Below, piece by piece: positions 1,313 to 15,530 of a DNA stretch of 32,000 nt (position 1 is its first letter; each line of letters starts with the position of its first letter). Both the position numbers and the translations under genes were made by a program. Origin of the DNA: Candidatus Methylomirabilis limnetica (GTDB lineage Bacteria > Methylomirabilota > Methylomirabilia > Methylomirabilales > Methylomirabilaceae); contig NZ_NVQC01000013.1 in the NCBI RefSeq assembly GCF_003044035.1, positions 30,001-62,000 of the forward strand, read 5' to 3'. Under the pieces are notes generated by a model that was given only the letters and a program-made list of their open reading frames with translations, did not search any database and was not told the DNA's origin.

Positions 1313-1594
1313 TCAATTATATTTTCTCTTTGTATTCCCTGAAGCCGGTAACCAATTGCCGGAAAGAGGTGGGTTTGTATTTCTCAAAGCTCTCTTCGTC
1401 CACGTAAACAAAGTCATCGTATAGAGCTGCTCGGTATCCACATCGAAATAGCCATGAGCCGGAACATCCCGAAGTCCCATGGCCACGCGCCATTGCACTT
1501 GCGGGTAGCGGGTAAAAAGCTTGCCCTCCGTTTGCTTATCAATATTCTTGAACTCCTCTCCGGCGGCGATCAAGATCCTACAGACGGTATCCAT
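1313..1594 (-). pseudogene. DUF86/HepT-type HEPN gene, degraded at the 5' end
   Basis: The ORF keeps ILIAAGEEFKNI and the R-x4-H motif (GLRDVPAHGYFDVD). The upstream in-frame sequence (ALEGIPRRCADISQPSDFSADDAG) is cut off by TAG at 1601-1603. The expected ATGA-coupled start at 1719 leads into a different frame. An alternative 3' frame reads more protein-like (LYDDFVYVDEESFEKYKPTSF). Confidence 0.55.
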
Positions 1595-1715
1595 ACGGTC
1601 CTATCCAGCGTCGTCGGCCGAAAAATCGCTCGGCTGGGAGATGTCGGCGCAGCGGCGGGGAATTCCCTCCAACGCCATCAATACGGTTTGCTATCTTTCC
1701 AATAACAAACCAGAA

Positions 1716-2051
1716 TCATACATAGATCGCCTCCCGTTCGATTCTGGCTTTTAGACGTGGATTCATGGTGTCTCGCAACCGAACGACGTCCACCGGATGA
1801 TTCAGGAAGGCTTCCAGATCCTGTTTTAGCATGGCGGTTATGAACAGATCGGGGCGATCAGTCTGGAAAACCACATCATCCTTCCTGATTCTATTCAGCG
1901 CTTCTCCAAGAATCTCGAACTTCCGCTCAACACCACTCCGGAGTAATTCATCCTGCTCATATTCGTCAAACGTCTTTCCACGGACGAACCGGAGAATGGC
2001 CGAAGCAGCTTCTCTGATATCGTAGAGGTACTTGAGGAGCTCATCCTCCAT
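1716..2051 (-). CDS. chimeric ORF: DUF86/HEPN N-terminal half fused to an MNT C-terminal tail
   Basis: The N-terminal half MEDELLKYLYDIREAASAILRFVRGKTFDEYEQDELLRSGVERKFEILGEALNRI is a typical DUF86 start, but no R-x4-H follows. The C-terminal HPVDVVRLRDTMNPRLKARIEREAIYV matches the C terminus of MNT proteins (compare KIDLLTVSGLRNPYFRRKVLKERMNIY in the neighbouring gene). Confidence 0.6.
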   Translation of the reverse strand: MEDELLKYLYDIREAASAILRFVRGKTFDEYEQDELLRSGVERKFEILGEALNRIRKDDVVFQTDRPDLFITAMLKQDLEAFLNHPVDVVRLRDTMNPRLKARIEREAIYV

Positions 2052-2337
2052 ATATGTTCATCCTCTCCTTGAGAACCTTGCGGCGGAAATAGGGATTTCT
2101 GAGACCGCTGACCGTGAGTAGGTCAATCTTGCACCCCAAGGTATCTTCGAGATAATGGAGCAGTCCGAAGAATCTCTTGGATGGGTGCAGATGGGGCTCC
2201 TCGAACTCAACGAGGAGGTCAACATCGCTTCCAGCAGTTCCCTCGCCGCGCGTGAGCGACCCGAAAAGGTCTAGCCTCTTTACTTTGAATTCCCTGCAAG
2301 CCGGCACTGCAACACTCTTAATGTCTTGCAAAGTCAT
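2041..2337 (-). CDS. minimal nucleotidyltransferase (MNT, antitoxin-type)
   Basis: LDLFGSLTRGEGTAGSDVDLLVEF signature. I prefer the ATG at 2337 (GGAGG 8 nt upstream) over the track start at 2439. The stop overlaps the start of the next ORF. Confidence 0.8.
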   Translation of the reverse strand: MTLQDIKSVAVPACREFKVKRLDLFGSLTRGEGTAGSDVDLLVEFEEPHLHPSKRFFGLLHYLEDTLGCKIDLLTVSGLRNPYFRRKVLKERMNIYGG

Positions 2338-2815
2338 CAATGCATCCTCCGAATCGACCCAGGCGCCCTGTAATCTAACTGTGTGGGCCGCTTTAGAGAC
2401 CGATACAGGCCAACGGCCTATCTTCAAAGGCGGCACCACTATTCACCGGCGAATTTGTTCGCAATATCGCACTCTTACCCCAACCGGTCAAGACTCTTCT
2501 GGCCGACAATCGCTGGTGGCTTCGGTGGAACGTCACGATATGCGGCATAACGCCCCGCATGAGGCGCGCGTCAGCGCGTCGCTCTCGATGCGCTCTATGC
2601 GATGTTATCAGAAAATGGGGTCTGACCCCAAATGCCTGTTCCGTTTCTCGTGAATCCCACAAAAGAGACTTGCGAATCGTGCGAAGGGACGTTACCCTAA
2701 AACAGCGATAGGGATGAATGAAAAACCTTGTGGGCCGCTCTGGGAGCGGATATAAAGGGGGTGAGCAATCACATTCCCTTTAACCCACAAGGTGAGGCCA
2801 TGGTACGACAAACGG

Positions 2816-2968
2816 ATGCTGCCCTTCAAGCTCGAACGAACAGACGAGACGCTGACCGCCCATGGTGGCCTCGCCCTGATCGCGGAGTTCACTCACGGCC
2901 TCGGGCTGCGGGCGCTCGTGGCATGGCACCTGCCGCACCCAGGGAGCGAGAGGATGGGCAACGCATGA
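2816..2968 (+). pseudogene. N-terminal stub (50 codons) of a DDE transposase (IS1380/IS4-like)
   Basis: ATG 2816 to TGA 2966-2968 reads MLPFKLERTDETLTAHGGLALIAEFTHGLGLRALVAWHLPHPGSERMGNA. The pattern (T-x-x-GGL-x-L-x-x-F ... LP-x-PGS) is as I recall it from the N-termini of IS1380-type transposases. No transposase body follows. Confidence 0.45.
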
Positions 2969-3153
2969 CATAATAAGGGGAGGAGTCTGTCTCAGAGCAT
3001 GGCATGCTGACTCCAGGAGGCTGCGTGGCAGGTGACCCCCTGCCAAGTGCCTCGCATATGGCGAGTCATGCCGGTCACCTGGTCGTAAAACGGCGGTGAT
3101 TGGCGTGCAGCGGTATTTCAGCAATGGCGATCTCTAGTTTTTGGGAACTCACG

Positions 3154-3845
3154 TGAACTTGCCTGCTGCCAATGAATGTGGTACGGTTATTGCCGTTGTG
3201 GGCGGTTATACGCTGCTGCTACCACGAATCAAATGGGCAGCGCTAGGGTAGCCTATGCGGCGTTACTCGATTTTTAGCTGAGACGGGTTGTAGTGGTCCT
3301 GTTCAGCTTTGAAGGAGTCCGGCGGATCAAGATGAAGGACGGTGGCGAGCATGACCCTCAAAGCGAGCCGGGGGTGCAGTGAACATGTCCGTAACAGAGT
3401 CATTGAAAGAGATCAGCGCCCGCTACAACCTTGGGGCGGTGTATGCCTTCGGTAGCCGAGCGACTGAAGTCGCCAGCCGGGTGTGCGGTGAAGCGACATC
3501 GCCGCAGTTGCCTGAGTCGGATGTAGACATCGGGGTGCAGCCTCTCCCTGGCCCCCGCCTGACGGCACAGGAGCGGGTCCGGCTCTCTATCGAGTTGGAG
3601 GATCTGCTGGGGGCGACCCGCGTGGATCTGGTGGTGCTGTCGGAAGCCGATCCGTTTCTCGCGTTAGAGGTCATTCGGGGGGAGCTCCTGTGCTGCACCG
3701 ACGCCGACGCCCAGGCAGAGGATGAGCTCTACGTCTTGCGGCGTGCTGGGGACCTGGCGCCATACGCCCGTGAGCGTTGGCAGTTGATCCTCTCGGGTGA
3801 GACAAGATGACTCCTGGGCAGTTGCACGCCAAGATCGTGGCGGAG
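3154..3845. repeat. segmental duplication, copy 1 (partner 13575-14268)
   Basis: Collinear by eye with 13575-14268 (offset 10421-10423). The copy contains a junction motif, a degenerate NTase 5' fragment, the MNT gene and the first 13 codons of a DUF86 gene. Confidence 0.9.
3379..3810 (+). CDS. minimal nucleotidyltransferase (MNT), now without a functional HEPN partner
   Basis: VYAFGSRATEV...PESDVDIGVQ signature. GTG 3379 or ATG 3385 start. 12 differences in 143 aa versus the ORF at 13802-14233. Confidence 0.85.
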   Translation: MNMSVTESLKEISARYNLGAVYAFGSRATEVASRVCGEATSPQLPESDVDIGVQPLPGPRLTAQERVRLSIELEDLLGATRVDLVVLSEADPFLALEVIRGELLCCTDADAQAEDELYVLRRAGDLAPYARERWQLILSGETR

Positions 3846-3854
3846 GATGAGTAG
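3807..3854 (+). pseudogene. 15-codon stub of the cognate DUF86/HEPN gene
   Basis: ATGA-coupled MTPGQLHAKIVAEDE*. It matches the first 13 codons of the ORF at 14230, then the homology breaks at 3846. Confidence 0.6.
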
Positions 3855-3860
3855 AGAGCT

Positions 3861-4739
3861 ATGCGCATTGGCGTAAACCCGCTCCCGCTGGTCTCGATCA
3901 TCACCCCTTCTCTCAACCAGGGACGGTTCATCCGGGATACCATCGAGAGCGTTCTCTCGCAGGACTATCCCAGGATGGAATACCTCGTCATGGACGGGGG
4001 CTCCACGGACGAGACCCTGGACATACTGCGGAGCTATGGGGACCGGATCACGTGGAGGTCGGGCCCTGATGGAGGTCAGGCCGCTGCAGTCAACTCTGGC
4101 GTTCACCTCGCCACAGGCGAGATTCTCGGATGGCTGAACTCCGACGACACGTACCAGCCTGGTGCCGTGACGGCAGCGGTTGAGCATCTCATCGCTCACC
4201 CGGAGACAGCCGTCGTCTACGGAGACGCCCATTACATCGACGAGCAGAATAGAGTGATCGGGATCTATCCAACAGAGGATTTCGCTCTAGACCGATTGGC
4301 CCACGCCTGCCTCATCTGTCAGCCGGCCGCCTTCTTCCAGCGCACAGCGATCGAGGCGGTGGGGGCGCTCGATGCAAGTCTTCAGTACTGTATGGACTAC
4401 GACCTCTGGATCCGGTTGGGACGACTATTTCCACTGAAACGGATCCCTGGATTTCTGGCCAACTCACGACAGTACCCGCAGACGAAGACCTGGTCGCAGC
4501 GAGATCGGCTCTTCACAGAGCTCTGCGTGGTGACACAGCGCTACTTCGGATTTACCTCTCCCCACTGGCGGGTCTGGCACGCCTATGCGCGACTCAAGGG
4601 TGTCTCCTGGCCGATAGCGCGATCGGTGCTATATCCAGTCAAGGCAGTGTTGCCGGAACGCGCCTCCCGGTGGCTCAGAGTGACGCTTCCGTTAGTGATC
4701 AACCGGCTGATCCCCTGGAATCTTCGCGCTCGGAGGTAG
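3861..4739 (+). CDS. family 2 glycosyltransferase
   Basis: VSIITPSLNQGRFIRDTIESVLSQDYPRMEYLVMDGGSTDETLDIL...WLNSDDTY. Paralogous to the C-terminal domain of the ORF at 29735-31672. Confidence 0.9.
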   Translation: MRIGVNPLPLVSIITPSLNQGRFIRDTIESVLSQDYPRMEYLVMDGGSTDETLDILRSYGDRITWRSGPDGGQAAAVNSGVHLATGEILGWLNSDDTYQPGAVTAAVEHLIAHPETAVVYGDAHYIDEQNRVIGIYPTEDFALDRLAHACLICQPAAFFQRTAIEAVGALDASLQYCMDYDLWIRLGRLFPLKRIPGFLANSRQYPQTKTWSQRDRLFTELCVVTQRYFGFTSPHWRVWHAYARLKGVSWPIARSVLYPVKAVLPERASRWLRVTLPLVINRLIPWNLRARR

Positions 4740-4742
4740 GCG

Positions 4743-4805
4743 GTGAAGCGGGTCCTCATCACCGGGATGACCGGCCAGGATGGATCGTACCTGATCAATG
4801 CTTAG
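4743..4805 (+). pseudogene. gmd: GDP-mannose 4,6-dehydratase, 20-codon 5' stub
   Basis: VKRVLITGMTGQDGSYLINA* starts 4 nt after the GT2 stop. ITG-x-TGQDGSYL is the characteristic Gmd N-terminus. Confidence 0.7.
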
Positions 4806-4884
4806 CACAAAAGACAGGAGAATAAGGAGGTTGACGAGGGATGGGAATGACCGTGGCGGCCCGTCGCCGCATGGAACAGTCTAT

Positions 4885-5055
4885 GGCATTGAGTTCCTGA
4901 ATGCCAATGATCAACTGACCGAAGACCGGGGTGCTCTCGTCGTCGAGCTGGAACTCGTTAAAGACGAACGTGGCTTTTTTGCCAGAACCTAGTGCCAGCG
5001 AAAATGTGCAGCGCACGAACTTTATCCGCGATTGGTGCAGTGCAATATCTCATGA
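4885..5055 (+). pseudogene. RmlC-like (dTDP-4-dehydrorhamnose 3,5-epimerase family) 5' fragment with an internal stop
   Basis: GALVVELELVKDERGFFART*CQRKCAAHELYPRLVQCNIS*. The DERGFF...LVQCNIS pattern is typical of RmlC-type cupins. TAG at 4990-4992 occupies the position where these proteins usually have Trp. Homology ends at the junction motif at 5051. Confidence 0.55.
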
Positions 5056-5097
5056 GTGTGGTACGGTTTTTGGCGTAGCATAGAGGGAAGTACACTT

Positions 5098-5397
5098 ATG
5101 GACCGAAGACAGAGCTACCTTGAACGCGTTCACCAGATCGTACTGCAGCACCTGAAAGGTCAGCCGGTGCGGGTGTATCTTTTTGGGTCCTGGGTTCGAG
5201 GTGACGCTCAGCGCACTTCGGACATCGACATCGCCATCCTACCATTCGGACCGCTCCCGCCCGGGCTTTTAAGTCACCTACAGGAGGCGTTAGAGGAAAG
5301 TTATGTCCCATATCCGATCGAGATGGTGGACCTCTCCCAGACCGATGTAGCCTTTCGCCGGCGAGTCATCGAGGAAGGAATTCTGTGGAGCGATTAA
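5098..5397 (+). CDS. minimal nucleotidyltransferase (MNT)
   Basis: VRVYLFGSWVRGDAQRTSDIDIAILP signature. ATG 5098 preceded by GAGGGAAG. The track start at 5056 lies inside the junction motif. Confidence 0.85.
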   Translation: MDRRQSYLERVHQIVLQHLKGQPVRVYLFGSWVRGDAQRTSDIDIAILPFGPLPPGLLSHLQEALEESYVPYPIEMVDLSQTDVAFRRRVIEEGILWSD

Positions 5398-5780
5398 AGG
5401 AACGAATTGAGGTAGCGTTCAGAGCCCTGATCACACTGGAGCAAGTTCTGCAAGAAAGCGCTCCCAGAAAGGTTGTACGCGATGCGGCCATCCAACGCTT
5501 TGAATACACCGTGGAAGCAGCATGGAAGGCAGCTCAGCGTTACTTACAGGAGGTGGAGGGTTTGAGATCGGGGTCTCCCAAGGGTGTTGTTCGGGCCTGT
5601 TTTCAGGTAGGGCTTCTAAGCGAAGAAGAGAGTGAACTGGCCCTCCAGATCATGGATGATCGTAATTTGACAGTGCATACCTACAATGAGCCTTTAGCTG
5701 AGGCCCTGTTTGCCCGTTTGCCAGAGCATGCCCGTCTGATCCGGCAGTGGCTGGAACGGCTCGCAGCGCGTGTGCAATAG
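5385..5780 (+). CDS. HI0074-family nucleotidyltransferase substrate-binding (HEPN-fold) protein
   Basis: RDAAIQRFEYTVEAAWKAAQRYL...MDDRNLTVHTYNE (R-N-x3-H-x-Y). GTG start overlapping the MNT stop by 13 nt. Confidence 0.85.
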   Translation: MERLKERIEVAFRALITLEQVLQESAPRKVVRDAAIQRFEYTVEAAWKAAQRYLQEVEGLRSGSPKGVVRACFQVGLLSEEESELALQIMDDRNLTVHTYNEPLAEALFARLPEHARLIRQWLERLAARVQ

Positions 5781-5910
5781 ACTGCCGGGACATCACCATG
5801 CATCTGCTGATCGTCGCTGCCAAGGCCGCTATACGAGCGAGCCATGAGGAAGATCACGCCGCTGCAAGGCTTTCGTATCATCCCGTTAGGCGATTACCTG
5901 CCGAGGCTTA

Positions 5911-6043
5911 GGAGGCGTCAACAATTAACATTTACATCTACCAAAGCAACAAACCCCCTTCATCCCCCTTTCGAAAGGGGGAAAGAGGGGGTTTGTACAT
6001 TTTTCGGATCATGAATATGTATATGTTATTCTTTGACGATGCC
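5911..6043 (-). mobile_element. 133-bp MITE-like element, copy A, flanked by TTA direct repeats
   Basis: Its reverse complement matches 25915-26047 with about 6-7 mismatches by eye. Imperfect 21-bp terminal inverted repeat (16/21). Long internal GC hairpin. TTA at 5908-5910 and 6044-6046. Confidence 0.7.
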
Positions 6044-6074
6044 TTACTCGCACATTTGAGCGTATCCCGAGATC

Positions 6075-6332
6075 GTGGCGGTCTATCTCTCTGTGGAGGT
6101 GTTCCAGATTCTGTGGGAGGCCGGGATTCTACCGGAGGAGTGTGTCCTGGTCCTTACCGGTGTGGGCCGTTTTCGAAATATCTTAGCCCATGTGTATATC
6201 ACTATCGAACTGGATAAGGTGTATGAGAACCTCCAGAAAGCCCAGAACAGATCAGTGAATTTATGCGGCTCGTTCAGCACTTTGTTGAAGAACAGGGGTC
6301 GCAGCAAGATCTCGCGTAAACGACGCGCTTAA
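6075..6332 (+). pseudogene. DUF86/HepT-type HEPN gene, 3' fragment with frameshift
   Basis: WEAGILPEECVLVLTGVGRFRNILAHVYITIELDKVYENLQKA carries R-x4-H-x-Y. In-frame TGA at 6057-6059 removes the N-terminus. After about 6240 a +1 frame reads better (SPEQISEFMRLVQHFVEEQG). No NTase partner is adjacent. Confidence 0.65.
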
Positions 6333-6600
6333 AATGTTCGTCTCATGGCGATCCCCTGTGGGCATCCCTTCCGGATATGATCAGGGCCAAAGGGCAGAAG
6401 ACCAATGATAAAGTCAACGTAACTGCTCAGGTAGATAGACTGTAGTCTTTTAGACTGTAGGAACGAGCTAGGCGTTTGCCGAATGTGACGCGAATCAATG
6501 ATGGAGACCGAAAAGGTTCTGGGCGCCTTGATTCGGTCCATGCGCAACGACTAACAGCCTTCAGTCTACAGCCTAAACACCTGAGTAGTTACAAGTCAAA

Positions 6601-6945
6601 ATGACAACGATCATTGAGCAGAGACGGACGCAACTAAAAGAAGCTCTTGAAAAAGCGATCCAAGTCCTGAGGGAGGAATATCATCCCCTCCGGATTATTG
6701 TTTTTGGATCGCTGGCGACGGACAAGGTCGGTGAGACCAGCGATTTAGATCTTCTGATCGTGAAGGAAACCTCCTTGCCTTTTTACGAGCGACTTCGTGA
6801 GGTGGCTCTGCTCTGTCCCTTGAAGGTTGGAGCGGACATTTTGGTTTACACCCCTGCCGAAGTTGAGCAGGCATCCCGGGATAGCCAGTTTTTTAGAGAA
6901 GAAGTCTTGGGAAAGGGTCGGGAGGTTTATCGTGCGCCCGTATGA
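6601..6945 (+). CDS. minimal nucleotidyltransferase (MNT)
   Basis: LRIIVFGSLATDKVGETSDLDLLIVKE ... ADILVYTPAEVE. Confidence 0.85.
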   Translation: MTTIIEQRRTQLKEALEKAIQVLREEYHPLRIIVFGSLATDKVGETSDLDLLIVKETSLPFYERLREVALLCPLKVGADILVYTPAEVEQASRDSQFFREEVLGKGREVYRAPV

Positions 6946-7081
6946 GCGGTGGCTGAACCAGGCATGGGATGATCTTCAATTTGCTCGCCTTGGTCTGGAA
7001 CAGGGGTTTCATGCACAGGCATGTTTTCTTTCCCAGCAGGTCATCGAAAAATGTCTGAAAGGGTGCCTGAGGTCAACCTGA
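6932..7081 (+). pseudogene. classical HEPN-domain gene truncated after about 49 codons
   Basis: GTG 6932 (overlaps the MNT stop) gives VRPYERWLNQAWDDLQFARLGLEQGFHAQACFLSQQVIEKCLKGCLRST*. This is the first helix pair of a PF05168-type HEPN protein; the remainder is missing. Confidence 0.6.
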
Positions 7082-7086
7082 GTCAA

Positions 7087-7575
7087 ATGGATACCGCTGT
7101 TAAAGAATTAGAGAAGAGGCTTCTAGCCGAAATTAAAGCCCTGTACGGCAAGAGGCTTGTGTCAGTGGTTGTGTTCGGCTCGGCTGGACAGGGAACACAA
7201 AGGTGTGACTCAGACCTGGACGTGTTGGTTGGTGCCGATCGACTCCCAAGGGGAAGAATGAAGCGTGTCGAAGAGTTTTCAATCGTGGAGAACCGGATTG
7301 AGCCTTTCTTGAAATCTCTTCAACAAGCGGGAATTGCCACCGATCTCTCTCCCGTGATCAAAAGCCCTGAGGAGGCGGAGAAAGGGAGTCCGCTGTTCCT
7401 CGACATGGTGGAGGATGCCCGCATTCTTGTGGATCGAAACGGGTTTTTCAAGGCGGTTCTGAAACGTCTTCGATGCCGGTTGGAGAAACTGGGCGCGAGG
7501 AGAATCTGGATGGGAAACGCATGGTACTGGGACCTCAAGCCGGACTATAAGCCCGGAGAATGCTTCGAGTTATGA
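7087..7575 (+). CDS. nucleotidyltransferase-domain protein with C-terminal extension
   Basis: LVSVVVFGSAGQGTQRCDSDLDVLVGAD signature. ATG 7087 preferred (alternatives 7051 and 7021 lie inside the truncated HEPN ORF). Confidence 0.8.
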   Translation: MDTAVKELEKRLLAEIKALYGKRLVSVVVFGSAGQGTQRCDSDLDVLVGADRLPRGRMKRVEEFSIVENRIEPFLKSLQQAGIATDLSPVIKSPEEAEKGSPLFLDMVEDARILVDRNGFFKAVLKRLRCRLEKLGARRIWMGNAWYWDLKPDYKPGECFEL

Positions 7576-7922
7576 CGAACGAAGACCTGGCCCAAAGTTA
7601 TCTTCGAAAGTCCATGGTTCGGCTTGATGTCCTCGATCTGTTTTTCAAAAAGCAGGATTACTCCGATGTGATCCGAGAGGCGCAGAAGATTGTAGAATTG
7701 TGTCTTAAAGGGGTGCTCCGTTATGTTGGTATTGAACTGCCGAAATTTCATGACGTCGGATTCCTTCTGCTTGAACATCACTGGCGGTGTAAGGGAATCG
7801 CCCTCAGAGATATTAAAAAGATGGCCGATATTTCCAAGCGGTTGAGGAAAGAGAGGGAGCTGGTTTTCTACGGGGATATTGATTTCATCCCAACCGATCA
7901 ATCAGAGGTAAAGGCGAGGTGA
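7572..7922 (+). CDS. classical HEPN-domain protein
   Basis: ATGA overlap with the upstream stop. YSDVIREAQKIVELCLKGVLRYVGIELPKFHDVG ... RKERELVFYGD. Confidence 0.8.
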   Translation: MTNEDLAQSYLRKSMVRLDVLDLFFKKQDYSDVIREAQKIVELCLKGVLRYVGIELPKFHDVGFLLLEHHWRCKGIALRDIKKMADISKRLRKERELVFYGDIDFIPTDQSEVKAR

Positions 7923-8341
7923 GCTTGAGCACAATCTACACGCTCGATCACGACGAACGGTCACGCATCATGGATCAGTTCGTGTCCGAACTGGCATCAG
8001 AACCGGGGATGGCCTTTGCGTACCTCTATGGGTCGTTTGTGGATTCCGAGGCGTTCCGGGATGTGGATGTTGGGGTGTATATGCGTTCCATGGCGCCGGG
8101 CGAGATGACCACGCGCGCTATGGCGCTCGCCCAGTGCCTCAGTACGAAGGTGCGGCTTCCCGTGGATGTCCGCGTGCTGAACGCCGCCCCTATTCCATTC
8201 CTCTACCACGTTCTACGGGGACACCTTCTCTTGAGTCACGATGACGATCTCCTCACCGAGGTGATTGAGCGGACCGCTTGCCGCTATCTTGACATCGCCT
8301 CGCTATTGCGCTCGAGTGCGCGGGAGGCGTTTGCGGCATGA
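7919..8341 (+). CDS. mntA: MntA-type nucleotidyltransferase antitoxin
   Basis: GTGA overlap with the upstream stop. FAYLYGSFVDSEAFRDVDVGVYM ... VDVRVLNAAP. Followed by an ATGA-coupled DUF86 gene. Confidence 0.85.
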   Translation: MSLSTIYTLDHDERSRIMDQFVSELASEPGMAFAYLYGSFVDSEAFRDVDVGVYMRSMAPGEMTTRAMALAQCLSTKVRLPVDVRVLNAAPIPFLYHVLRGHLLLSHDDDLLTEVIERTACRYLDIASLLRSSAREAFAA

Positions 8342-8880: not shown

Positions 8881-9100
8881 CGGAGACCTTACAGAACGAT
8901 CGAGTGGCACCGACAGACCCAGGTGTGATCCCGGGCAAGGCGCCATGGACCGGAGGAGGCATGAGGGGTAGTGGTGCATCTGTTCCGGGGGTCCTCTCCG
9001 CGTTTGACAGTGCGGACACAGGCATATATCATCCACGCTCGATTCGCAGTGTGAGCGGTCAGGCCTGTGGTAGCGGAATCGGGCTCCCCGAGAGGAGCAG

Positions 9101-9180
9101 GTGGAGACAACAGACCGAATAGGCAGCGCCAAGGCCGCCTACGGGGCGGCGCGGGGGAGGCGGTGCGCATTGGTGCACGC
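9101..9180 (+). pseudogene. deletion remnant: NTase 5' end joined to HEPN 3' end
   Basis: 9101-9152 matches the first ~50 nt of the NTase gene at 14759 (GGAGACAAC-GACCGAAT...GCCTACG-GGCG). 9150-9170 matches GCGGGGGAGGCGGTGCGC at 15441-15458 near the 3' end of the HEPN gene. Confidence 0.55.
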
Positions 9181-9249
9181 TGGGCGGGAGCGCTCCCGCC
9201 AGTTTTCCTGGGAGCGTACGGTGGAATCGCATCAGAAGAGCGGTAAGGA

Positions 9250-9567
9250 ATGGATGTAGGAACCATACACCGATTAGTTGCCGAGGGAAGGTATGAGTTT
9301 TCAAAGCATGCCGAGAGGGAACGAGAGGCCGATATGATCTCTACCACCGAGCTGGAAGAGGCTCTGAAGCGTTGCGACATCATCGAGAATTATCCGGATG
9401 ACCCTCGATGGCCGAGCTGTCTGGTTCTCGGATTTTCAGGTCAAAGACCTATCCATGCTGTGTGTAGCGTGAAACGAGATCCTGAGGAGCTTTTCCTCAT
9501 CACGGTGTATGATCCTTCCAAGCGGCCAGAGCACTGGATGGACCGTTACAAGCGGAGAAGGAGGTGA
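9250..9567 (+). CDS. DUF4258-domain protein (putative toxin)
   Basis: YEFSKHAEREREADMISTTELEEALKRCDIIENYPDDPRWPSCLVLGFSGQRPIHAVCSV...LFLITVYDP matches the DUF4258 pattern as I recall it. Confidence 0.75.
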   Translation: MDVGTIHRLVAEGRYEFSKHAEREREADMISTTELEEALKRCDIIENYPDDPRWPSCLVLGFSGQRPIHAVCSVKRDPEELFLITVYDPSKRPEHWMDRYKRRRR

Positions 9568-9571
9568 TTCT

Positions 9572-9820
9572 GTGACCAGGGTGTATCATCGGTGCCACTT
9601 CTGTGGAGGGGAGGTGGTCGAGCAACGAGTGACCGTGGATTATCGCTGGGGGGACACGTTCTTGGTGGTCATTCGCCATGTGCCGGCTGGGGTCTGCCAG
9701 GTATGTGGGGAGCAGTATTTGAAGGCCGAAGTGGTCAAAGAGATGGAAAAGGTGGCCCATTCTCAAGAGGAGGCAAAAGAAGTCCTTCGAATCCCTGTCA
9801 GGGAGCTGAAAGTAGCTTAG
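9572..9820 (+). CDS. YgiT-type (MqsA N-terminal-like) zinc-finger protein, putative antitoxin
   Basis: GTG 9572 with GGAGAAGGAGG upstream. C-x2-C ... C-x2-C: HRCHFCGGEVVEQRVTVDY...VPAGVCQVCGEQYL. No HTH domain is appended. Confidence 0.75.
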   Translation: MTRVYHRCHFCGGEVVEQRVTVDYRWGDTFLVVIRHVPAGVCQVCGEQYLKAEVVKEMEKVAHSQEEAKEVLRIPVRELKVA

Positions 9821-9969
9821 GGTTCGATCCTACAGGCAAGGCGGTGAGGCTGGTCGAGATCATGGGGGATGACCATGTGAGCGAAGAATGGCTGGGAGAA
9901 TAAGCCTAGTTGGCGTCCTGACCCAGACCTACCAGTGGGTCGAGCGAATTTGCAAGGACGGAGCGCCGG

Positions 9970-10120
9970 ATGGAGACCATGGACCAGATAGGCAGCGCCA
10001 AGGCCACCTACGGGGCCTTGCGAGAGTCCTCGGGGAAGGAATTTTGTGGAGCTGAAGCAGTCTGGAAGGCAGCTCAGCGGTACTTGCAAGAGATGGAGGG
10101 GGTACGTGATCGCTAAAAGG
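9970..10120 (+). pseudogene. chimeric remnant: NTase 5' fragment + HI0074-type HEPN internal fragment
   Basis: 9970-10033 resembles the 5' end of the gene at 14759. 10046-10120 resembles 5510-5585 of the HI0074-type gene (AVWKAAQRYLQEMEG vs AAWKAAQRYLQEVEG), followed by a stop. Confidence 0.55.
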
Positions 10121-10161
10121 TGCCGCTCGATCCTACTTCCAGACCAAGAGGGTTCGCCGCA

Positions 10162-10583
10162 ATGATTCATAAGACTTCGCTCCCCAAAGATAGTGAGGAG
10201 CGGCTACGCTCCCTTGGCCCAGCGTTACAACAATGCTCTGGTGTCCTCTTCGCCTACCTGTTTGGCGGGGCGACGGTTTCACCCCTCAAGCCCCTGAGCG
10301 ATGTGGATGTGGCTGTTACCTTGATGACCCTGTCGATCTGGTCGAGGGGCGTCTGGAGGCCATCGGCGTAGTAACCACGCACCTGCATACCGACGAGGTA
10401 GACGTGGTAGTCCTCAATACGGCGCCGACGGCCTTGACGGGACGGATCCTTCAGACCCGACGGGTCATCTTCGACCGCGATCCGTTCCGCCGACACCTCT
10501 TCGAGTCACTTGCGCTCCGAGAGTTCTTCGACTTCCGCATCTTCGAACATCGCCTCCTGGCCAGGAGGCACGGCAATGGTTGA
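10162..10583 (+). pseudogene. MNT nucleotidyltransferase with a -1 frameshift
   Basis: Frame A gives VLFAYLFGGATVSPLKPLSDVDVAV. The sequence continues in frame B as YLDDPVDLVEGRLEAIGVVTTHLHTDEVDVVVLNTAP.... The junction at about 10317-10320 (GCT GT|T ACC) looks like a 1-nt loss, unless it is a sequencing error. Confidence 0.7.
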
Positions 10584-11294
10584 CAGGGACCTCCTCCTCC
10601 GGAAACTAGCGGATCTTGACCAGTATCTGGGCCAAGTATCAGAGTACCGGGACATCACCATCGACCAGTATCGAGGAGACTGGAAGACCCAGCGTATTGT
10701 CGAGCGGACTCTCCAAATGACCATCGAGCTGTGCGTGGACATTGCCAACCATATCATCGCCGACCGGGGACTCCGGGTCCCGGCAACCTATTCTGGGTTC
10801 TTCCGGCATTAGCGTGGGTACGAGGGAGCTCAATATCCCTTCTGGGGAAGAGGGTGGCTGTGTTCCTCCCCCTCGAGGGGGGAGGATGAAGGTGGGGGTG
10901 ATCGGAGGCTTTCGGAGCGTCACCCATAGCGTCTCTTGGGCTGTGTGGGCGTGTGCGTGTCACCCGCTGACATCGTGCATGGCATGCGCCCTCCCACCCG
11001 CGCCCTCCCCCCGGATCGAGTCCGGGGCAGGCTCTCGGTGGGGGGAGGGGATGCTGGAAGGCCCGGGTACCCACGGAACACCCGGAAGAACCCTATTCCG
11101 AGGCGTTTGACGTCCTGGGCGAGGCCGGACTCCTGGACGCAGCTCGGCGAGATGCCATGATCCGCATGAGCAAGTTCCGTAATGTGATCGTCCACGACTA
11201 TGTGCGGGTAGACCCCACGATTGTCGTGCAGATCCTGCGTGAGCATCTCGAAGACTTGACCCGGTTCAAGGTGGCCGCGCTGAAGTGGATATAG
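10576..11294 (+). pseudogene. DUF86/HepT-type HEPN gene split by a ~300-bp MITE
   Basis: The 5' part is MVDRDLLLRKLADLDQYLG...IADRGLRVPATYS. The 3' part (11094-11294) is YSEAFDVLGEAGLLDAARRDAMIRMSKFRNVIVHDYVRVD...KWI*. Removing 10794-11098 restores one 137-codon frame. Confidence 0.8.
10794..11093. mobile_element. MITE-like insertion with perfect 12-bp TIRs and a TATTC target duplication
   Basis: GGGTTCTTCCGG (10795-10806) and CCGGAAGAACCC (11082-11093) are exact reverse complements. TATTC occurs at 10789-10793 and 11094-11098. No credible ORF inside. Contains a CCTCCCCCTCGAGGGGGGAGG hairpin. Confidence 0.75.
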
Positions 11295-11440
11295 CGTGCG
11301 TACGACTACTCTGCCAGGAGGCATGGTAAGAGATGGAGATGAGCGTAGCGTCCCGACGTCGGTTGTTATTGGACATGGCCCGCAGGCGGGCGCAACCGGG
11401 AACCGGCAGCTCCAGACTCTTCCTGGAAGCTCGAACGGCT

Positions 11441-11953
11441 ATGACGTACTGGCCTGATCTTACGCCGACGCTCACCGGCATCCCATGGGCCGTGGTGGGG
11501 GCCGTTGCTACCCGAGCCTACATGCCTGAGCGCACCACTCAGGACCTGGACATCCTGGTGAATGTGTCGGATCAGGAAGAGGTGAGAGTACGCCTGCAAC
11601 GGGCCGGCTTTCTTCCGGTGCAAGAGCTTGCCATCGGGGGTATGACCTGGCGCTCCCCTATGGGGGCCATAGTAGATGTCATTGAGTCTCGGGCGGAGTG
11701 GGTGTCGGAAGCGCTCCAGTCGCTGAGACAGGACCGCCAGGGACTTCCCGTGCTTGACCTGCCGTATCTCGTCCTGATGAAGGTTGAGGCGGGACGCGCG
11801 CAGGATCTGGCGGATGCGGCACGCATGCTTGGGGCAGCATCGGAGGCTCGCCATCAGGAGACCTGTGAGCTCTTTCGCCGCTATCTACCCGACGCACAGG
11901 ACGACCTGGAGAGTCTTATCGCCTTGGGTCGCCTGGAGATGGGGAATGAGTAA
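11441..11953 (+). CDS. solitary nucleotidyltransferase-fold protein (DUF6036/AbiEii-like)
   Basis: WAVVGAVATRAYMPERTTQDLDILV and LPYLVLMKVEAGRAQDLADAARM resemble standalone NTase-fold proteins. ATG 11441 preferred over the Arg-rich extension from 11333. Confidence 0.5.
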   Translation: MTYWPDLTPTLTGIPWAVVGAVATRAYMPERTTQDLDILVNVSDQEEVRVRLQRAGFLPVQELAIGGMTWRSPMGAIVDVIESRAEWVSEALQSLRQDRQGLPVLDLPYLVLMKVEAGRAQDLADAARMLGAASEARHQETCELFRRYLPDAQDDLESLIALGRLEMGNE

Positions 11954-12010
11954 TGTTTTTAGAACGATCGGGTGGTATAGGAAGACTCAACCTTTGGCTG
12001 AGAGGCAATC

Positions 12011-12083
12011 TTATTACTCAGAGCATAAAATAGCTTGCCCCCCTTTAGCAAAGGGGGGTAAGGGGGGTTTTGAACGATCGGTA
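12011..12083. repeat. 73-bp dispersed repeat (second copy at 16343-16415)
   Basis: TTATTACTCAGAGCATAAAATAGCTTGCCCCCCTTTAGCAAAGGGGGGTAAGGGGGGTTTTGAACGATCGGTA is nearly identical at both sites. Confidence 0.85.
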
Positions 12084-12090
12084 CAAATCA

Positions 12091-12168
12091 CCTCTTTCCC
12101 CCTTTCGAAAGGGGGATGAAGGGGGTTTGTTGCTTTGGTAGATGTAAATGTTAATTGTTGACGCCTCC
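12091..12168 (+). mobile_element. 133-bp MITE family, partial copy B (right ~78 bp)
   Basis: Matches 25970-26047 almost exactly (CCTCTTTCCCCCTTTCGAAAGGGGGATGAAGGGGGTTTGTTGCTTTGGTAGATGTAAATGTTAATTGTTGACGCCTCC). The left third is missing. Confidence 0.75.
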
Positions 12169-12383
12169 TAAACGACGCATCACTGGCCTTTCGTTACCAC
12201 GCCATGACGGGACAACCTCCGCTTTCTTCTCTTCGCTCGCCGGTATCTCCGTGAGGTGCTGAGTGCGTGAGATCGACTTGGAGCGGCTCAGGGAACTGGC
12301 GGGGCAACTGCGAAGCGCGGTGCGGGAGCTTACGGCGACCAGTACCTGGCCGCCATCGGCCATCACGTGAAGGCTCATCTCTT

Positions 12384-12510
12384 TTGAATCCACTGGGGGT
12401 TCATTCCCCTCGGCGTGCCGCGAGTTCGTCATACCGGCGGACCCCGGATCAGAGTCCGGGGCAGGCGCCGGTATCCAGAGGGCCCGACTGGATTCCCCCG
12501 TATCAAGCGG
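12384..12510 (+). repeat. REP/MITE-like repeat family 2, copy 1
   Basis: TTGAATCCACTGGGGGTTCATTCC...GCCGCGAGTTCGTCATACCGGCGG...GGTATCCAGAGGGCCCGACTGGATTCC is shared with 16043-16228 and 26938-27095. It generates the recurrent artefactual ORF start MPRVRHTGG. Confidence 0.8.
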
Positions 12511-12583
12511 AACACCTGGGTTTTATTGATCGGGATAAATCTGGCGATACCAGAGTGCTTTCGCCGGGAGGCAGCATGTGCGC

Positions 12584-12612
12584 TTGACATTCACAGGCGT
12601 GACAGATAAAAT
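12584..12612 (+). promoter_or_regulatory. near-consensus sigma70 promoter for vapBC
   Basis: TTGACA (12584-12589), 17-nt spacer, TAAAAT (12607-12612). Lies at the edge of a conspicuously AT-rich 80-bp stretch just upstream of the ATG at 12664. Confidence 0.5.
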
Positions 12613-12663
12613 TCATTATGTATGTCAAATAGATAAAGTATCGACGAATAGGTAAATAATCTG

Positions 12664-12915
12664 ATGCTTATCATTAAAGTAGGACGTCGAGGACAGATTA
12701 CAGTCCCTAAAGCGATCCGCCGATGGCTCAACCTCCAGGAGGGCGATCGGCTGGCCTTCGTCCGTCGGGGCGACGAGGTCATTCTGCAGCCCCTCACCCG
12801 CACGTTGTTGGACCTGCGGGGAAGTGTCCCTGTATCAGGACCTCAGGATTTCGCCGCCATTCGCCAGCAGGTGATCGATCGCCACGCTCGCCAGGTCATC
12901 GAGAATGACGCCTGA
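12664..12915 (+). CDS. vapB: AbrB/MazE/SpoVT-family antitoxin
   Basis: MLIIKVGRRGQITVPKAIRRWLNLQEGDRLAFVRRGDEVILQP is a looped-hinge-helix (AbrB-type) motif. Overlaps the PIN gene by 11 nt. Confidence 0.85.
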   Translation: MLIIKVGRRGQITVPKAIRRWLNLQEGDRLAFVRRGDEVILQPLTRTLLDLRGSVPVSGPQDFAAIRQQVIDRHARQVIENDA

Positions 12916-13339
12916 GCGCCTCTTCGCCGACACCAATCTTTTTTTGCGCTACCTGACCAACGATGTGCCGGAACAGGCAGAGGCCGTCGAGCAGGTGCTC
13001 CGTCGTGCAGCGGCTGGAGAGCTGGTCCTCGTGACGAACACACTGGTCATGGCGGAGATTGTGTGGACACTGGAAACCTTCTACCAACTCCCGAGAAGTG
13101 ACATCAAAGACAAGGTATTGGCCATCCTGAACACCCCTGGGCTCGAGGTGGCGGATGGCGACCTGATGCTGCAAGCCATGACCTGGTATACGGAGAAGAA
13201 TGTGGGCTTCATCGATGCCTACAATGCGGCCTGGATGCGAGGCGTGGGGTTGATGATTGCCTGCACATTTGACCGAAAACACTTTTCCCGCCTCGAAGGG
13301 GTGACCGTGATGGTTCCGGGAGCCGATCCTCCCGGCTAA
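12905..13339 (+). CDS. vapC: PIN-domain ribonuclease toxin
   Basis: Acidic residues in the expected PIN positions: LFADTNLFL, VMAEIVW, GFIDAYNAAW, CTFDRKHF. Confidence 0.85.
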   Translation: MTPERLFADTNLFLRYLTNDVPEQAEAVEQVLRRAAAGELVLVTNTLVMAEIVWTLETFYQLPRSDIKDKVLAILNTPGLEVADGDLMLQAMTWYTEKNVGFIDAYNAAWMRGVGLMIACTFDRKHFSRLEGVTVMVPGADPPG

Positions 13340-13424
13340 CCTAACCTCCGCGCTCGACAGCGCGACGGATGATATTCGGGCCTCTCTTCGCCCCGAAAGT
13401 CCCCCTCGGCCGCCTGATCTGTAG

Positions 13425-13445
13425 GGGCGGGGTTTATCCCCGCCC
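13425..13445 (+). terminator. GC hairpin downstream of vapC (REP-like or terminator)
   Basis: GGGCGGGG-TTTAT-CCCCGCCC, an 8-bp perfect stem. No clear U-tract. Confidence 0.3.
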
Positions 13446-13508
13446 GGTAAGCAGGAGGGCGCACGAGGTATTGGTTGTATGAAGCTGACCGCAATGAGCG
13501 ACGTGTGA

Positions 13509-13552
13509 GACGACCTGGAGAGCCTCACCACCCTGGGCCGGTTAGAAATGGA
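13509..13552 (+). pseudogene. ghost copy of the 3' end of the 11441-11953 gene
   Basis: DDLESLTTLGRLEMD versus DDLESLIALGRLEMG. DNA similarity runs from GACGACCTGGAGAG onward. Confidence 0.5.
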
Positions 13553-13574
13553 CCGACCGCTGCTAACACGCAAA

Positions 13575-14268
13575 TGAACTTGCCTGCTGCCAATGAATGT
13601 GGTACGGTTCTTGCCATTGTATGAAGTTATACTCTGCTGCTCACATGGACTTAATAGGCAGCGCCAAGGCCGCCTACGCGGCGTTGCTGGAGTCCTTGAT
13701 GAAGTGGGTCGTAGTGGTCCTGTCTGGCCTTAAGGGGGTCAGGCTGATCAAGATGGAGTAACGGTGGCGACCATGACCATCAAGGCGAAACCTAGGGTGT
13801 AGTGAACATGTCCGTAACAGAGCCGTTAAAAGAGATCAGCGCGCGCTACAACCTTGGGGCGGTGTATGCCTTCGGCAGCCGAGCGACCGAAGTCGTCAGC
13901 CAGGTGTACGGTGAAGCGACATCACCGCAGTTTCCTGAGTCGGATGTAGACATCGGGGTACAGCCTCTCCCAGGTCACCGCCTGACGGCACAGGAGCGGG
14001 TCCGGTTCTCTATCGAGCTGGAGGACCTGCTCGGCGTCGGCCGTGTGGATCTCGTAGTGCTACCGGAGGCCGATCCGTTTCTTGCACTGGATGTCATTCG
14101 GGGGGAGCTCCTGTGTTGCGCCGACGCCGACGCCCAGGCGGAGGATGAACTCTACGTCTTGCGGCGAGCTGGGGACCTGGCGCCATACGCCCGTGAGCGT
14201 TGGCAGTTGATCCTCTCGGGTGAGACAAGATGACTCCTGGGCAGTTGCGCGCCAAGATCGTGGCGGAG
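13575..14268. repeat. segmental duplication, copy 2 (partner 3154-3845)
   Basis: See copy 1. The same order of junction motif, NTase 5' fragment, MNT gene and DUF86 start. Confidence 0.9.
13802..14233 (+). CDS. minimal nucleotidyltransferase (MNT)
   Basis: VYAFGSRATEV...PESDVDIGVQ. Paralog of the gene at 3379-3810. Confidence 0.85.
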   Translation: MNMSVTEPLKEISARYNLGAVYAFGSRATEVVSQVYGEATSPQFPESDVDIGVQPLPGHRLTAQERVRFSIELEDLLGVGRVDLVVLPEADPFLALDVIRGELLCCADADAQAEDELYVLRRAGDLAPYARERWQLILSGETR

Positions 14269-14475
14269 CGAGCGGCGTGGATCCGGCGGATGGTGGCCTC
14301 CCTCCGGGCTTTGCCTGGGGAGAGTTTCGAGACCTTTCAATCAGATTCCCGCAACATCGCTGCAGCCGAATCGTATCTGCGCCGGGCATTGGAGGCGCTT
14401 CACCTTCCCGATTCCAAAAGTGAGAGTGGTAGAATTCTAGTGGAGGAGGGATGTTATACTTGCCGAGTATATTGA
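14230..14475 (+). pseudogene. DUF86/HepT-type HEPN gene truncated before the catalytic motif
   Basis: ATGA-coupled MTPGQLRAKIVAERAAWIRRMVASLRALPGESFETFQSDSRNIAAAESYLRRALEAL is DUF86-like. From about 14400 the sequence is unrelated and there is no R-x4-H. Confidence 0.65.
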
Positions 14476-14482
14476 CAAGGCT

Positions 14483-14725
14483 ATGGAACAAGCCGTTTAT
14501 GAGATTATTGAGGACGAACGAACGTACTGGGGAGAGATTCCTGGTCTTCAAGGTGTGTGGGCGCGTCATGCTACGTTAGAGGGTTGCCGACGTGAACTCC
14601 GTGAGGCGCTGAGTGACTGGATGGCGTTGCGTTTGCGACTGGGCCTAGCGATTCCCGTTGTAGCAGGTATTGATCTGAATCAAATTACACAGCACTCGAT
14701 GTGCCGTGCGAGCCGTCAGGTCTGA
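14483..14725 (+). CDS. hicB: HicB-like (UPF0150) antitoxin domain protein, no intact HicA nearby
   Basis: YEIIEDERTYWGEIPGLQGVWARHATLEGCRRELREALSDWMALRLRLGLAIP matches the HicB N-terminal domain pattern. Confidence 0.65.
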   Translation: MEQAVYEIIEDERTYWGEIPGLQGVWARHATLEGCRRELREALSDWMALRLRLGLAIPVVAGIDLNQITQHSMCRASRQV

Positions 14726-14758
14726 GGTCGCGGAATCGAGTTCCCAGAAGAGCATCCG

Positions 14759-15118
14759 ATGGAGACAACGGACCGAATATACAGCGCCAGGGCTGCCTAC
14801 GCGGCGCTGCTAGAGTCCTCGCTGAAGCGGGTTGTAACGGTCCTGTCCGGCCTTGAAGGGATCAAGCGGATCAGCCTCGTGGGGTCCTATGCCCGGGGCC
14901 GGGCCGATCTGTTCACCGATCTCGACATCCTGGTGGTGATGGACACGGATCTCAGCTTTATCGACCGCCTTCGCATGTTGTACCCGCTCCTGGCCCTGCC
15001 CGTGGACCTGGACCTGCTGTGCTATACCCCTGGGGAGTTAGAGCGGATGCAGGACCGACCGTTCATAAAGCATTTGCGTCGAGAGGAGGTAGTCCTCTAT
15101 GAGACGAGCACCTCGTGA
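14759..15118 (+). CDS. nucleotidyltransferase-domain protein
   Basis: [25 protein letters not shown] ... [13 protein letters not shown]. Confidence 0.85.
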
Positions 15119-15530
15119 AGAGGGCGCCAGATGGCTGCAACAGGCCGTCGAGGATCTGCGGTGGGCCGAAGATCTGGCAGAGCGCGGCGGGTATCACATT
15201 GCCTGCTTCCTGGCCCAGCAGATCGGCGAAAAGGCCCTCAAGGGGTTCCTCTATGCGCAGGGCGAGGAGATAGTGATAGGTCATTCAGTCGAGCGGTTGT
15301 GCCGAGCGGCTGCCCGCTATGACCCAGCATTCGACCAACTGGTCGCGCGGTGGTCGATCTTGGATGGCTATTACATCCCGACTCGATATCCAAACAGCGT
15401 ACCCGACAGCATTCCGGCCCATATCTTCACTCGAGATGCCGCGGGGGAGGCGGTGCGCTTGGCGAGAGAGATCGTGACCTACGTCACCGATCGACTCGGT
15501 CGGATGGAGGGTGAAGGTGGTGGAGGATGA
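15099..15530 (+). CDS. classical HEPN-domain protein
   Basis: [41 protein letters not shown]...YYIPTRYPN. 20-nt overlap with the NTase gene. Confidence 0.85.

Follow-up and report, generated by a model that had tools for sequence, protein, structure and literature searches.

The locus considered here raises the question of how so many toxin–antitoxin (TA) genes came to lie side by side on one bacterial chromosome, and what has become of them since. It occupies positions 1313–15530 of a 32,000-nt stretch, hereafter the window, of contig NZ_NVQC01000013.1 (positions 30,001 to 62,000 of the forward strand; assembly GCF_003044035.1) from Candidatus Methylomirabilis limnetica. An earlier note on this DNA, made from the sequence alone, described a dense cluster dominated by modules that pair a minimal nucleotidyltransferase (MNT; NTase for short) with a HEPN-type protein from one of three subfamilies, and Pfam bears that description out. 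The answer that we favour, with a probability of roughly 0.8, is that this is a chromosomal spot at which TA modules accumulate and erode, and that it falls within the variable portion, at the left, of an island for cell-surface (O-antigen-type) glycan biosynthesis in Candidatus Methylomirabilis (NC10). Six pairs are intact, namely the MNT-HEPN modules C, F, G and P, a VapBC pair and a DUF4258/zinc-finger pair; about eight further MNT-HEPN modules are eroded, with the toxin gene nearly always the damaged part, and over half of the TA pairs in the cluster are already broken. The whole window is 99.97% identical to contig ERZ4201063 NODE_42 (coverage ~668), a metagenome contig in the European Nucleotide Archive, and a gene for an HD-domain protein just upstream is 84–97% identical to genes from metagenome-assembled genomes (MAGs) of Candidatus Methylomirabilis and Methylomirabilota; the host is taken to be a nitrite-dependent methane oxidiser of the NC10 phylum.

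Domain content and the extent of decay

Domains were called with Pfam for the window proteins and with NCBIfam and PADLOC for the TA proteins, while RNA genes were sought with Rfam and ARAGORN. Intact NTases of the NTP_transf_2/Polbeta type number eight by Pfam (2041–2439 on the minus strand, 3379–3810, 5056–5397, 6601–6945, 7021–7575, 7919–8341, 13802–14233 and 14759–15118), and a ninth (10120–10583) is frameshifted and scores under the Pfam cut-off. The intact HEPN-type genes are four, comprising one HepT (8338–8754), one of HI0074 type (5385–5780) and two classical HEPN genes (7572–7922 and 15099–15530), and they are accompanied by at least seven HEPN-type fragments (1313–1594 and 1716–2051, both on the minus strand, 6075–6332, 6827–7081, 10510–10812, 11157–11294 and 14230–14475). 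Nearly every domain call of the earlier note was upheld when its open reading frames (ORFs) were searched with Pfam models, and VapBC, DUF4258/zinc-finger and HicB genes also belong to the cluster. Its count of eleven ORFs with an NTase signature stands roughly as a tally of genes but not of motifs: the literal pattern G[SG]-x9-13-D-x-D has six matches within the cluster (against ~1.06 expected from the shuffled whole window), and three NTases that Pfam supports are spaced otherwise, B and N with 24 residues between the two parts and G with x8. Three HEPN subfamilies are indeed present, but the note had missed that most of the HEPN-type genes are pseudogenes, and the question of cross-talk that it raised concerns far fewer active toxins than it implied, with only four of about twelve MNT-HEPN modules intact in frame translations.

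Partner genes overlap as the earlier note had described, by ATGA or GTGA junctions or by 10–20 nt (4–20 nt over all types). The claim that the pairs are mutually diverged also holds, as NTases are at most ~45% identical over short stretches, with the exception of B and N, a duplicate pair at 92%. Among the called genes, the Pfam tables show no TA-family member in the ~9 kb upstream, in the window from 15.5 to 32 kb, or in the ~10 kb beyond it, and relative to the flanks read the cluster is locally a clear outlier in TA density. Over the whole window the sole Rfam match was a tRNA, and scans for promoters and terminators gave no excess over chance. For comparison, two relatives were reached via the protein of orf206, a gene of the cluster: a Joint Genome Institute metagenome contig (L102) and the NC10 MAG GCA_012026875.1 (L103).

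The lesions can be followed from left to right. On the minus strand, NTase_A (2041–2439; Pfam NTP_transf_2 3.4e-13, PADLOC PDC-S09 1.5e-24) is an intact MNT whose HepT partner has been destroyed. The adjoining ORF (1716–2051, minus strand) is a chimera, in which the N-terminal ~58 residues of a HepT (Pfam HepT-like, profile positions 1–47 only) run into the C-terminal tail of a second NTase, by eye like the C-terminus of NTase_A; it is a deletion scar. To the second minus-strand module, the one that supplied this tail, also belongs HepT pseudogene #2 (1313–1700, minus strand), of which ORF 1313–1594 retains the motif RDVPAHGY (Pfam HepT-like 1.1e-9, profile positions 28–104) below an upstream in-frame stop. 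NTase_B (3379–3810; Pfam Polbeta 4.1e-12, NCBIfam MntA 58.4 bits with a cut-off of 60) is an MntA-like orphan, and its HepT partner has been cut down to 17 codons (3807–3860) by a GT2 glycosyltransferase gene. The region around it (3147–3850) is a partial duplicate, at 77–88% identity, of 13568–14273, where module N (13802–14475) consists of the intact MntA-like NTase_N (13802–14233; Pfam Polbeta 1.2e-9) and a truncated ORF of 81 codons (14230–14475). This ORF has ~57 HepT-like residues before its stop and is a HepT by eye; Pfam gives no match to it.

Remnant D (5844–6332) derives from a gene in which MNT and HepT were fused. It keeps 22 N-terminal codons, followed by a 155-nt repeat (5907–6061), an internal deletion and a HepT C-terminus with RNILAHVY (Pfam HepT-like, profile positions 61–109). 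An intact fused gene of 295 codons is found in L102 (880–1767) and is 82% identical across the remnant; the fused type was described recently (PMC13000451). Module E (6601–7081) retains an intact NTase (6601–6945; Pfam NTP_transf_2 8.7e-10), and its classical HEPN gene (6932–7081) stops after ~44 profile positions (Pfam HEPN 1–44), where module F starts.

Module K (10120–11294) is dead. Its NTase (10120–10583) is frameshifted and its HepT gene, recognised by Pfam, lies in two parts (10510–10793, and 11099–11294 with RNVIVHDY), between which sits a 299-bp element (10794–11092) resembling a miniature inverted-repeat transposable element (MITE), whose ends are inverted repeats of 32 nt and whose target duplication is CTATTC. 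In L102 the corresponding site is uninterrupted (CCGGCAACCTATTCCGAGGCG, the empty site at ~9755–9775), and deleting the element together with one copy of CTATTC restores the HepT_K frame (…PATY|SEAFD…). Among the sequences compared, the element was found at this site alone, in the window and in other assemblies of its host. The L102 module is dead as well, its HepT gene by a nonsense codon and its NTase gene by a stop and by a frameshift unlike that of the window, and since the lesions differ between the window and L102 the decay was independent in the two lineages.

Erosion is thus documented by the chimera, the stop in HepT #2, the cut HEPN_E, the HepT truncations of B and N and the NTase_K frameshift, and in modules A, B, E and N a broken toxin gene stands beside an NTase gene that has survived. 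Decay that strikes the toxin first and mostly spares the NTase is what would be expected if prior loss of the antitoxin were lethal. Another orphan antitoxin gene, HicB-like (UPF0150; 14483–14725, Pfam 5e-26), is 97% identical to its counterpart in L102 and 90% to that in L103. It is not part of a HicAB pair, as no HicA gene lies beside it and the flanks showed no HicA-like ORF.

The six intact pairs

Modules F and G form a chain of four genes joined by 4-nt overlaps (7021–8754; Pfam). Module G (7919–8754) resembles the Shewanella HepT/MntA (type VII) system, at only ~25–30% identity and, here, from sequence: an MntA-like gene (7919–8341; Pfam Polbeta 4.4e-11, above that model's cut-off) lies directly upstream of hepT (8338–8754) with an ATGA overlap at 8338–8341. 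HepT_G carries the Rx4HxY motif as RNLLVHMY, scores 104.9 bits against NCBIfam HepT_toxin NF047751 (cut-off 60), and aligns with the Shewanella HepT structures (PDB 6m6u/5yep, 5e-7) with RN..VH.Y in register. To this same HepT/MntA type belong fragments A, D, K and N.

Module C (5056–5780) belongs to the HI0073/HI0074 type, in which a minimal NTase is paired with an NTase_sub_bind protein. Its NTase gene (5056/5098–5397; Pfam Polbeta 2e-12, 47.5 bits with a cut-off of 26.9) overlaps the HI0074-type HEPN gene (5385–5780; PF08780 2.6e-26, 92.5 bits with a cut-off of 31.8) by 10–13 nt. The NTase matches HI0073 (PDB 1no5, 2.5e-8), and the HEPN protein has as sequence kin the Thermus TTHA0636-type protein (PDB 1wwp, 1.5e-39), the toxin from Legionella pneumophila's HEPN-MNT pair (8xdj, 1.4e-7; PMC11586414) and HI0074 itself (1jog). 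The Legionella toxin reportedly catalyses via a metal site and not via the Rx4HxY loop (PMC11586414). Module C carries RNLTVHTY, and either mode may apply to it.

Modules F and P pair a minimal NTase with a downstream classical HEPN protein (PF05168). In module F (7021–7922) an NTase gene (7021/7051–7575; 28.7 bits, cut-off 21) precedes a HEPN gene (7572–7922; 48.6 bits, cut-off 22), and in module P (14759–15530) the NTase gene (14759–15118; NTP_transf_2 2.9e-9, 37.6 bits, cut-off 21) overlaps the HEPN gene (15099–15530; 1.8e-25, 89.8 bits, cut-off 22) by 20 nt. HEPN_P matches Thermus TT1696 (PDB 1ufb, 8.2e-20), and no sequence relatives of HEPN_F or of NTase_G were found in PDB. Modules F and P and fragment E are like the class II HEPN-T pairs (TT1696; TM0613, 1o3u), with the NTase gene upstream and overlapping. 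Both intact classical proteins lack the canonical Rx4-6H RNase motif and the Rx4HxY loop, and have R-x6-D instead (RELVFYGD in F, RYPNSVPD in P). A replacement of H by D is seen in many HEPN-T members (PMC3710099), and the canonical RNase motif is present only in class I HEPN proteins (PMC11586414); for these reasons the toxin function and chemistry of modules F and P are less certain than those of G and C.

To our knowledge, AMPylation is established for the Rx4HxY (HepT/class I) type only. The supposition of the earlier note that the NTase neutralises its HEPN partner in this way therefore applies to modules of that type and not to the two classical HEPN proteins with R-x6-D. In type VII systems the NTase AMPylates the tyrosine of the Rx4HxY loop (PMC11586414 and references there). 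By homology it is likely that the NTases of modules G and C, in both of which the loop is present, would AMPylate this tyrosine and so silence the HEPN RNase; upon loss of the NTase the RNase would cut RNA and growth would stop.

The two remaining pairs are of other families. VapBC (12664–13339) consists of an AbrB/MazE-type VapB gene (12664–12915; MazE_antitoxin 9.1e-12, 45.2 bits, cut-off 24.7) overlapping by 11 nt a gene for a PIN-domain VapC (12905–13339; 6.7e-9, 36.8 bits, cut-off 23.6), which by its family membership would be an RNase. VapB is 94% and VapC 98% identical to the L102 counterparts. A promoter-like site lies near vapB (12584–12612), in a scan that overall found such sites no more often than chance. 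The DUF4258 gene (9250–9567; Pfam 3.4e-21) and that for a YgiT-type zinc finger (9572–9820; TIGR03831 2.3e-13), form a putative toxin/antitoxin pair, and 10 further metagenome contigs carry the two side by side among other neighbours. When metagenomes were scanned with DUF4258, only distant copies of this two-gene module came up, and the TA island itself did not.

Genomic position and the history of the cluster

The earlier note took the nearby tRNA-Met (CAT; 414–490, plus strand, by ARAGORN and Rfam) for the insertion point of an island. This would make the cluster a classical integrative island that entered at the tRNA by means of a site-specific integrase and brought its TA genes along. The tRNA is 823 nt from the first TA gene, and transposases of the IS256 and IS3 types are found to the right, still within the glycan island, ~4–10 kb past the right end of the window and ~20–25 kb from the cluster. 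Moreover, in L103 a tRNA-Ala (6815–6890) stands at the left edge of the glycan/TA island, and a tRNA-adjacent placement of the variable island may recur, though an integrase is unseen. Between the tRNA and the cluster, however, there is a cupin gene (666–1082, minus strand; Pfam Cupin_2) that forms part of a conserved block (HD gene, 133-aa gene, tRNA-Met, cupin) and is 80–89% identical and syntenic beside tRNA-Met in two relatives without the cluster (L009 and L010). The comparison with relatives that the earlier note had called for places the border past the cupin and not at the tRNA: nucleotide similarity to the window stops at 1094 in L010 and at 1170 in L009, and the variable region begins right of the cupin, at ~1095–1170. 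Past the cupin L010 has housekeeping-type genes, whereas in L009 a single small TA-like pair and an unrelated gene of 263 aa are present; as far as their sequences were available, neither relative has any of the window's TA genes. Conversely, the post-cupin genes of L010 are absent from the ~50 kb of contig covered here (~9 kb upstream to ~10 kb beyond the window). No integrase was found in the window, the ~9 kb upstream or the ~10 kb downstream, and the 3' end of the tRNA has no second copy in the 32-kb window, the far border of the island lying beyond the sequence covered. The content of the cluster is a patchwork of differing divergence ages, unlike a single imported block. Entry at the tRNA is thus quite improbable, and the tRNA serves as context only.

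A further possibility, that the cluster is a sedentary integron-like array of promoterless co-oriented cassettes (a cluster of attC sites lacking an integrase, CALIN), comes to mind on seeing that the genes from 3379 to 15530 are almost all short, on the plus strand and inclusive of TA pairs, as in chromosomal integron arrays. A search with a simple R''/R' pattern of attC type, made without a covariance model, revealed no array, and no IntI-like gene was found. Within the cluster the pattern RYYYAAC...GTTRRRY matches just once, in the coding sequence of vapB, and the whole window has 10 matches as against ~4.3 by chance; the palindromes that do recur are GC-rich hairpins resembling repetitive extragenic palindromic (REP) elements and are present outside the cluster too. 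We give this possibility almost no weight. In view of the cupin synteny and of the lack of an integrase, an att repeat and an attC array, neither a tRNA-integrated island nor an integron is present as far as was seen.

What surrounds the TA genes is instead glycan biosynthesis, and the cluster sits at the left end of an O-antigen-type island. Intact glycan genes begin at 16513 (a dTDP-sugar isomerase, glycosyltransferases, an epimerase, APS kinase and a sulfotransferase-like gene), and others lie among the TA genes: the GT2 gene at 3861–4739 (Pfam Glycos_transf_2 4e-26; 75% identical to the L103 GT2), an epimerase stub from 8787 and a GT4 stub at 15881–16044. GC content runs at ~50–61% over the window and does not change abruptly at the cluster. 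In L102 and L103, too, TA clusters occur within glycan clusters of Wzm/Wzt type. L102 shares VapBC, DUF4258/zinc finger, HicB, module K, orf206, NTase_B, the isomerase (rfbC-like) and GT2 at 88–97% nucleotide identity, but there the order differs and so do the truncations of the modules; L103 shares orf206, NTase_P and HicB at ~83–85%, rearranged, together with more distant MNT and HEPN homologues, those of module F included. Modules thus rearranged and interleaved with glycan genes in L102 and L103, and the other genes that follow tRNA and cupin in L009 and L010, speak for the reading favoured here. For most TA genes synonymous divergence (dS) from L102 is 0.03–0.26 (window 12664–17949), and for the adjoining isomerase and GT2 0.29–0.39, which hints that TA modules were exchanged more recently or that glycan genes were replaced faster.

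Under the accumulation-and-erosion reading, mobile two-gene MNT-HEPN modules of three subfamilies (HepT/MntA, HI0073/HI0074 and classical HEPN with NTase) would have landed repeatedly at this spot, and modules of VapBC, DUF4258/zinc-finger and HicB type would have arrived alongside them. Later the modules would have been shuffled, truncated by one another, struck by small repeat elements and partly lost. In the six surviving pairs the upstream antitoxin gene overlaps the toxin gene, and for that reason the two are probably co-translated. Such a history has precedents: TA families cluster significantly into 'islands' (Makarova 2009, PMC2701414), loci that hold several MNT and HEPN genes are known from crenarchaea (PMC3710099), and in Photorhabdus TA systems cluster in high-turnover spots with frequent toxin pseudogenisation and no enduring linkage to neighbours (Belot 2026, PMC13617665). 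The locus fits the Photorhabdus model closely. As in the known islands and high-turnover spots (PMC2701414, PMC13617665), unrelated TA families share a single variable region, erosion of toxin genes has left antitoxins orphaned, and transposable elements are associated. Unlike in those, the host belongs to NC10, MNT-HEPN modules dominate and embedding in a glycan island recurs in three lineages; these features, and one documented MITE in a toxin gene, are specific to this locus, which is otherwise ordinary, the clustering of TA genes in high-turnover spots with toxin pseudogenisation being already known.

Several points weigh against this reading. NTase_G scores 49.6 bits against the MntA model NF047752, below its cut-off of 60, and the spacer of its motif is shorter, GS-x8-DVD in place of GS-x10-DxD. 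Toxicity, neutralisation and AMPylation are all predicted from homology. The contrast in TA density spans only ~9 kb upstream and ~26 kb downstream of the cluster, and some 'fragments' might yet encode working short proteins, such as the 93-aa HepT ORF 1313–1594, which has kept its motif. Finally, the ratios of nonsynonymous to synonymous divergence (dN/dS), rough Nei-Gojobori estimates against L102, come from 2–20 substitutions per gene and are indicative only: 0.05 for the orphan HicB, 0.13 for VapC, 0.14 for the zinc finger, 0.21 and 0.27 for the orphan NTases N and B, and 0.35 for DUF4258. The values of these three orphans (0.05–0.27) are themselves among the grounds for the reading.

The low ratios of intact genes could also be read in favour of a selected anti-phage battery acting by abortive infection, set beside genes for phage-receptor glycans, in which each HEPN RNase would respond to a phage cue of its own. 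HEPN RNases do work in several defence systems (PMC3710099), the NTases here match the PADLOC family PDC-S09, and the TA cluster lies within glycan clusters in three lineages. Yet the toxin genes are for the most part dead, and the decay of module K happened twice independently, which argues for relaxed selection; PDC-S09, moreover, is a candidate family. Pfam revealed no recognised defence system (restriction–modification, CRISPR, CBASS and the like) in the window, PADLOC having covered ten TA proteins only, and in Photorhabdus the TA systems cluster apart from defence systems (PMC13617665). A battery of this kind is therefore unlikely.

There is also the prospect that the orphan NTases, which appear to be under purifying selection, constitute a standing 'anti-addiction' or immunity set and, separately, that orf206 represents a new family of MenT-like NTases. 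If so, the array would be more than debris: the orphans would neutralise HEPN toxins that phages or plasmids bring in and would be inherited together with genes for receptor variation. This combination is unlikely; in its favour are the recurrence of the glycan-island placement in three lineages and the apparent selection on the orphans. On the accumulation-and-erosion reading, the locus offers a clean view, caught in nature, of how TA modules are acquired, shuffled and lost toxin first, with antitoxins left as orphans, in an uncultured and environmentally important methane oxidiser, and its four intact MNT-HEPN pairs from three subfamilies, side by side, could be used for tests of cross-neutralisation between NTases and HEPN proteins. 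The understanding of TA biology itself is unchanged by it.

orf206, scraps and repeats

The gene orf206 (11333–11953, plus strand) had been counted in the earlier note as a solitary NTase among the TA components. The protein has a predicted MenT1/AbiEii-like fold and is no MNT antitoxin; it is at most a candidate TA component. It has no match in Pfam (AbiEii included), NCBIfam or PADLOC, and 1985 homologues, of which the best 120 are 57–97% identical. Its structure model (pLDDT 85) has as best Foldseek match the Mycobacterium tuberculosis MenT1 (E 2.4e-8, TM 0.52–0.63, 23% identity), and it would share with MenT1 (Rv0078A) and AbiEii toxins the fold and a G-x-D-x-D-type NTase core. Unlike those toxins, orf206 has no adjacent antitoxin gene, and its homologues are conserved across phyla beside housekeeping-type genes; they are solitary, with an M48 peptidase and a UbiE methyltransferase or with an SNF2 helicase as neighbours, and no neighbour gene is conserved across six contexts (the window, L102, L103, L107, L110 and L111). 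The dN/dS of orf206 against L102 is 0.19. The gene belongs to a conserved solitary family that lacks a library annotation, and it could found a widespread single-gene family of MenT-like tRNA-modifying NTases.

Scraps of other genes are strewn between the modules. The stretch 8787–9170 holds ~35 N-terminal codons of an NAD-epimerase (the epimerase stub; Pfam Epimerase, profile positions 1–26) followed by a copy of an NTase_P-type 5' end (9030–9170; repeat family D3), and scrap J (9970–10116; repeat families D3 and D17) fuses ~17 codons of an NTase_P-like N-terminus to an internal HI0074-type piece (10054–10100). A copy of the orf206 C-terminus (13509–13551) and another NTase_P-type 5' end (13644–13750) make up 13509–13750 (families D11, D3 and D4). 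In all, NTase_P-type 5' ends are scattered at 3223, 9109, 9978 and 13644, and a DUF2283 piece lies at 4864–4953. The ORF at 2792–2968, by eye a transposase fragment, was rejected as such, having neither a Pfam hit nor a match to the L102 transposase. At the right edge (15881–16218) the GT4 N-terminal fragment (15881–16044), which matches at 82% identity the beginning of an intact GT4 gene in L102, is cut by a dispersed repeat of ~180 nt (16040–16218). The start of the GT2 protein within the cluster, MRIGVNPLPL (3861–3890), nearly equals that of this fragment, MRIGVNTLPL (15896–15925), which suggests a recombination junction at which the start of a GT4 gene was fused to a GT2 body.

Repeats of several kinds run through the window. 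Nested GC-rich palindromes (AAACCCCCTC..TCCCCCTTTCGAAAGGGGGA..GGGGGTTT), intergenic and REP-like or terminator-like, are found at 519–612, 1180–1213, 5950–5996, 12026–12130, 16358–16461 and 25963–26009, with short matches also in the Methylomirabilis loci L010 and L017; in the relative L012 the HD gene has as its neighbour an ORF that, on inspection by eye alone, resembles an IS200/REP-associated tyrosine transposase. The dispersed repeat of ~130–180 nt at the right edge recurs at 12381–12507 and 26935–27086, its copies being internally complementary and 71–77% identical by BLAST; it has no Rfam match and is a candidate MITE or structured RNA. A different intergenic repeat of ~180 nt (6419–6591), 84–89% identical across Methylomirabilis (L006 13578–13759 and 16379–16560; L010 16564–16728; L017 7676–7857), flanks helicase and HD genes and occurs within the TA cluster as well. 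Near the right end of the window, tandem-like direct repeats of 84–195 nt (29999–30345) encode the N-terminal coiled-coil part of a 645-aa GT2, in which the peptide ...AERRREALEAVTTDRDAWEARYQQ... is repeated.

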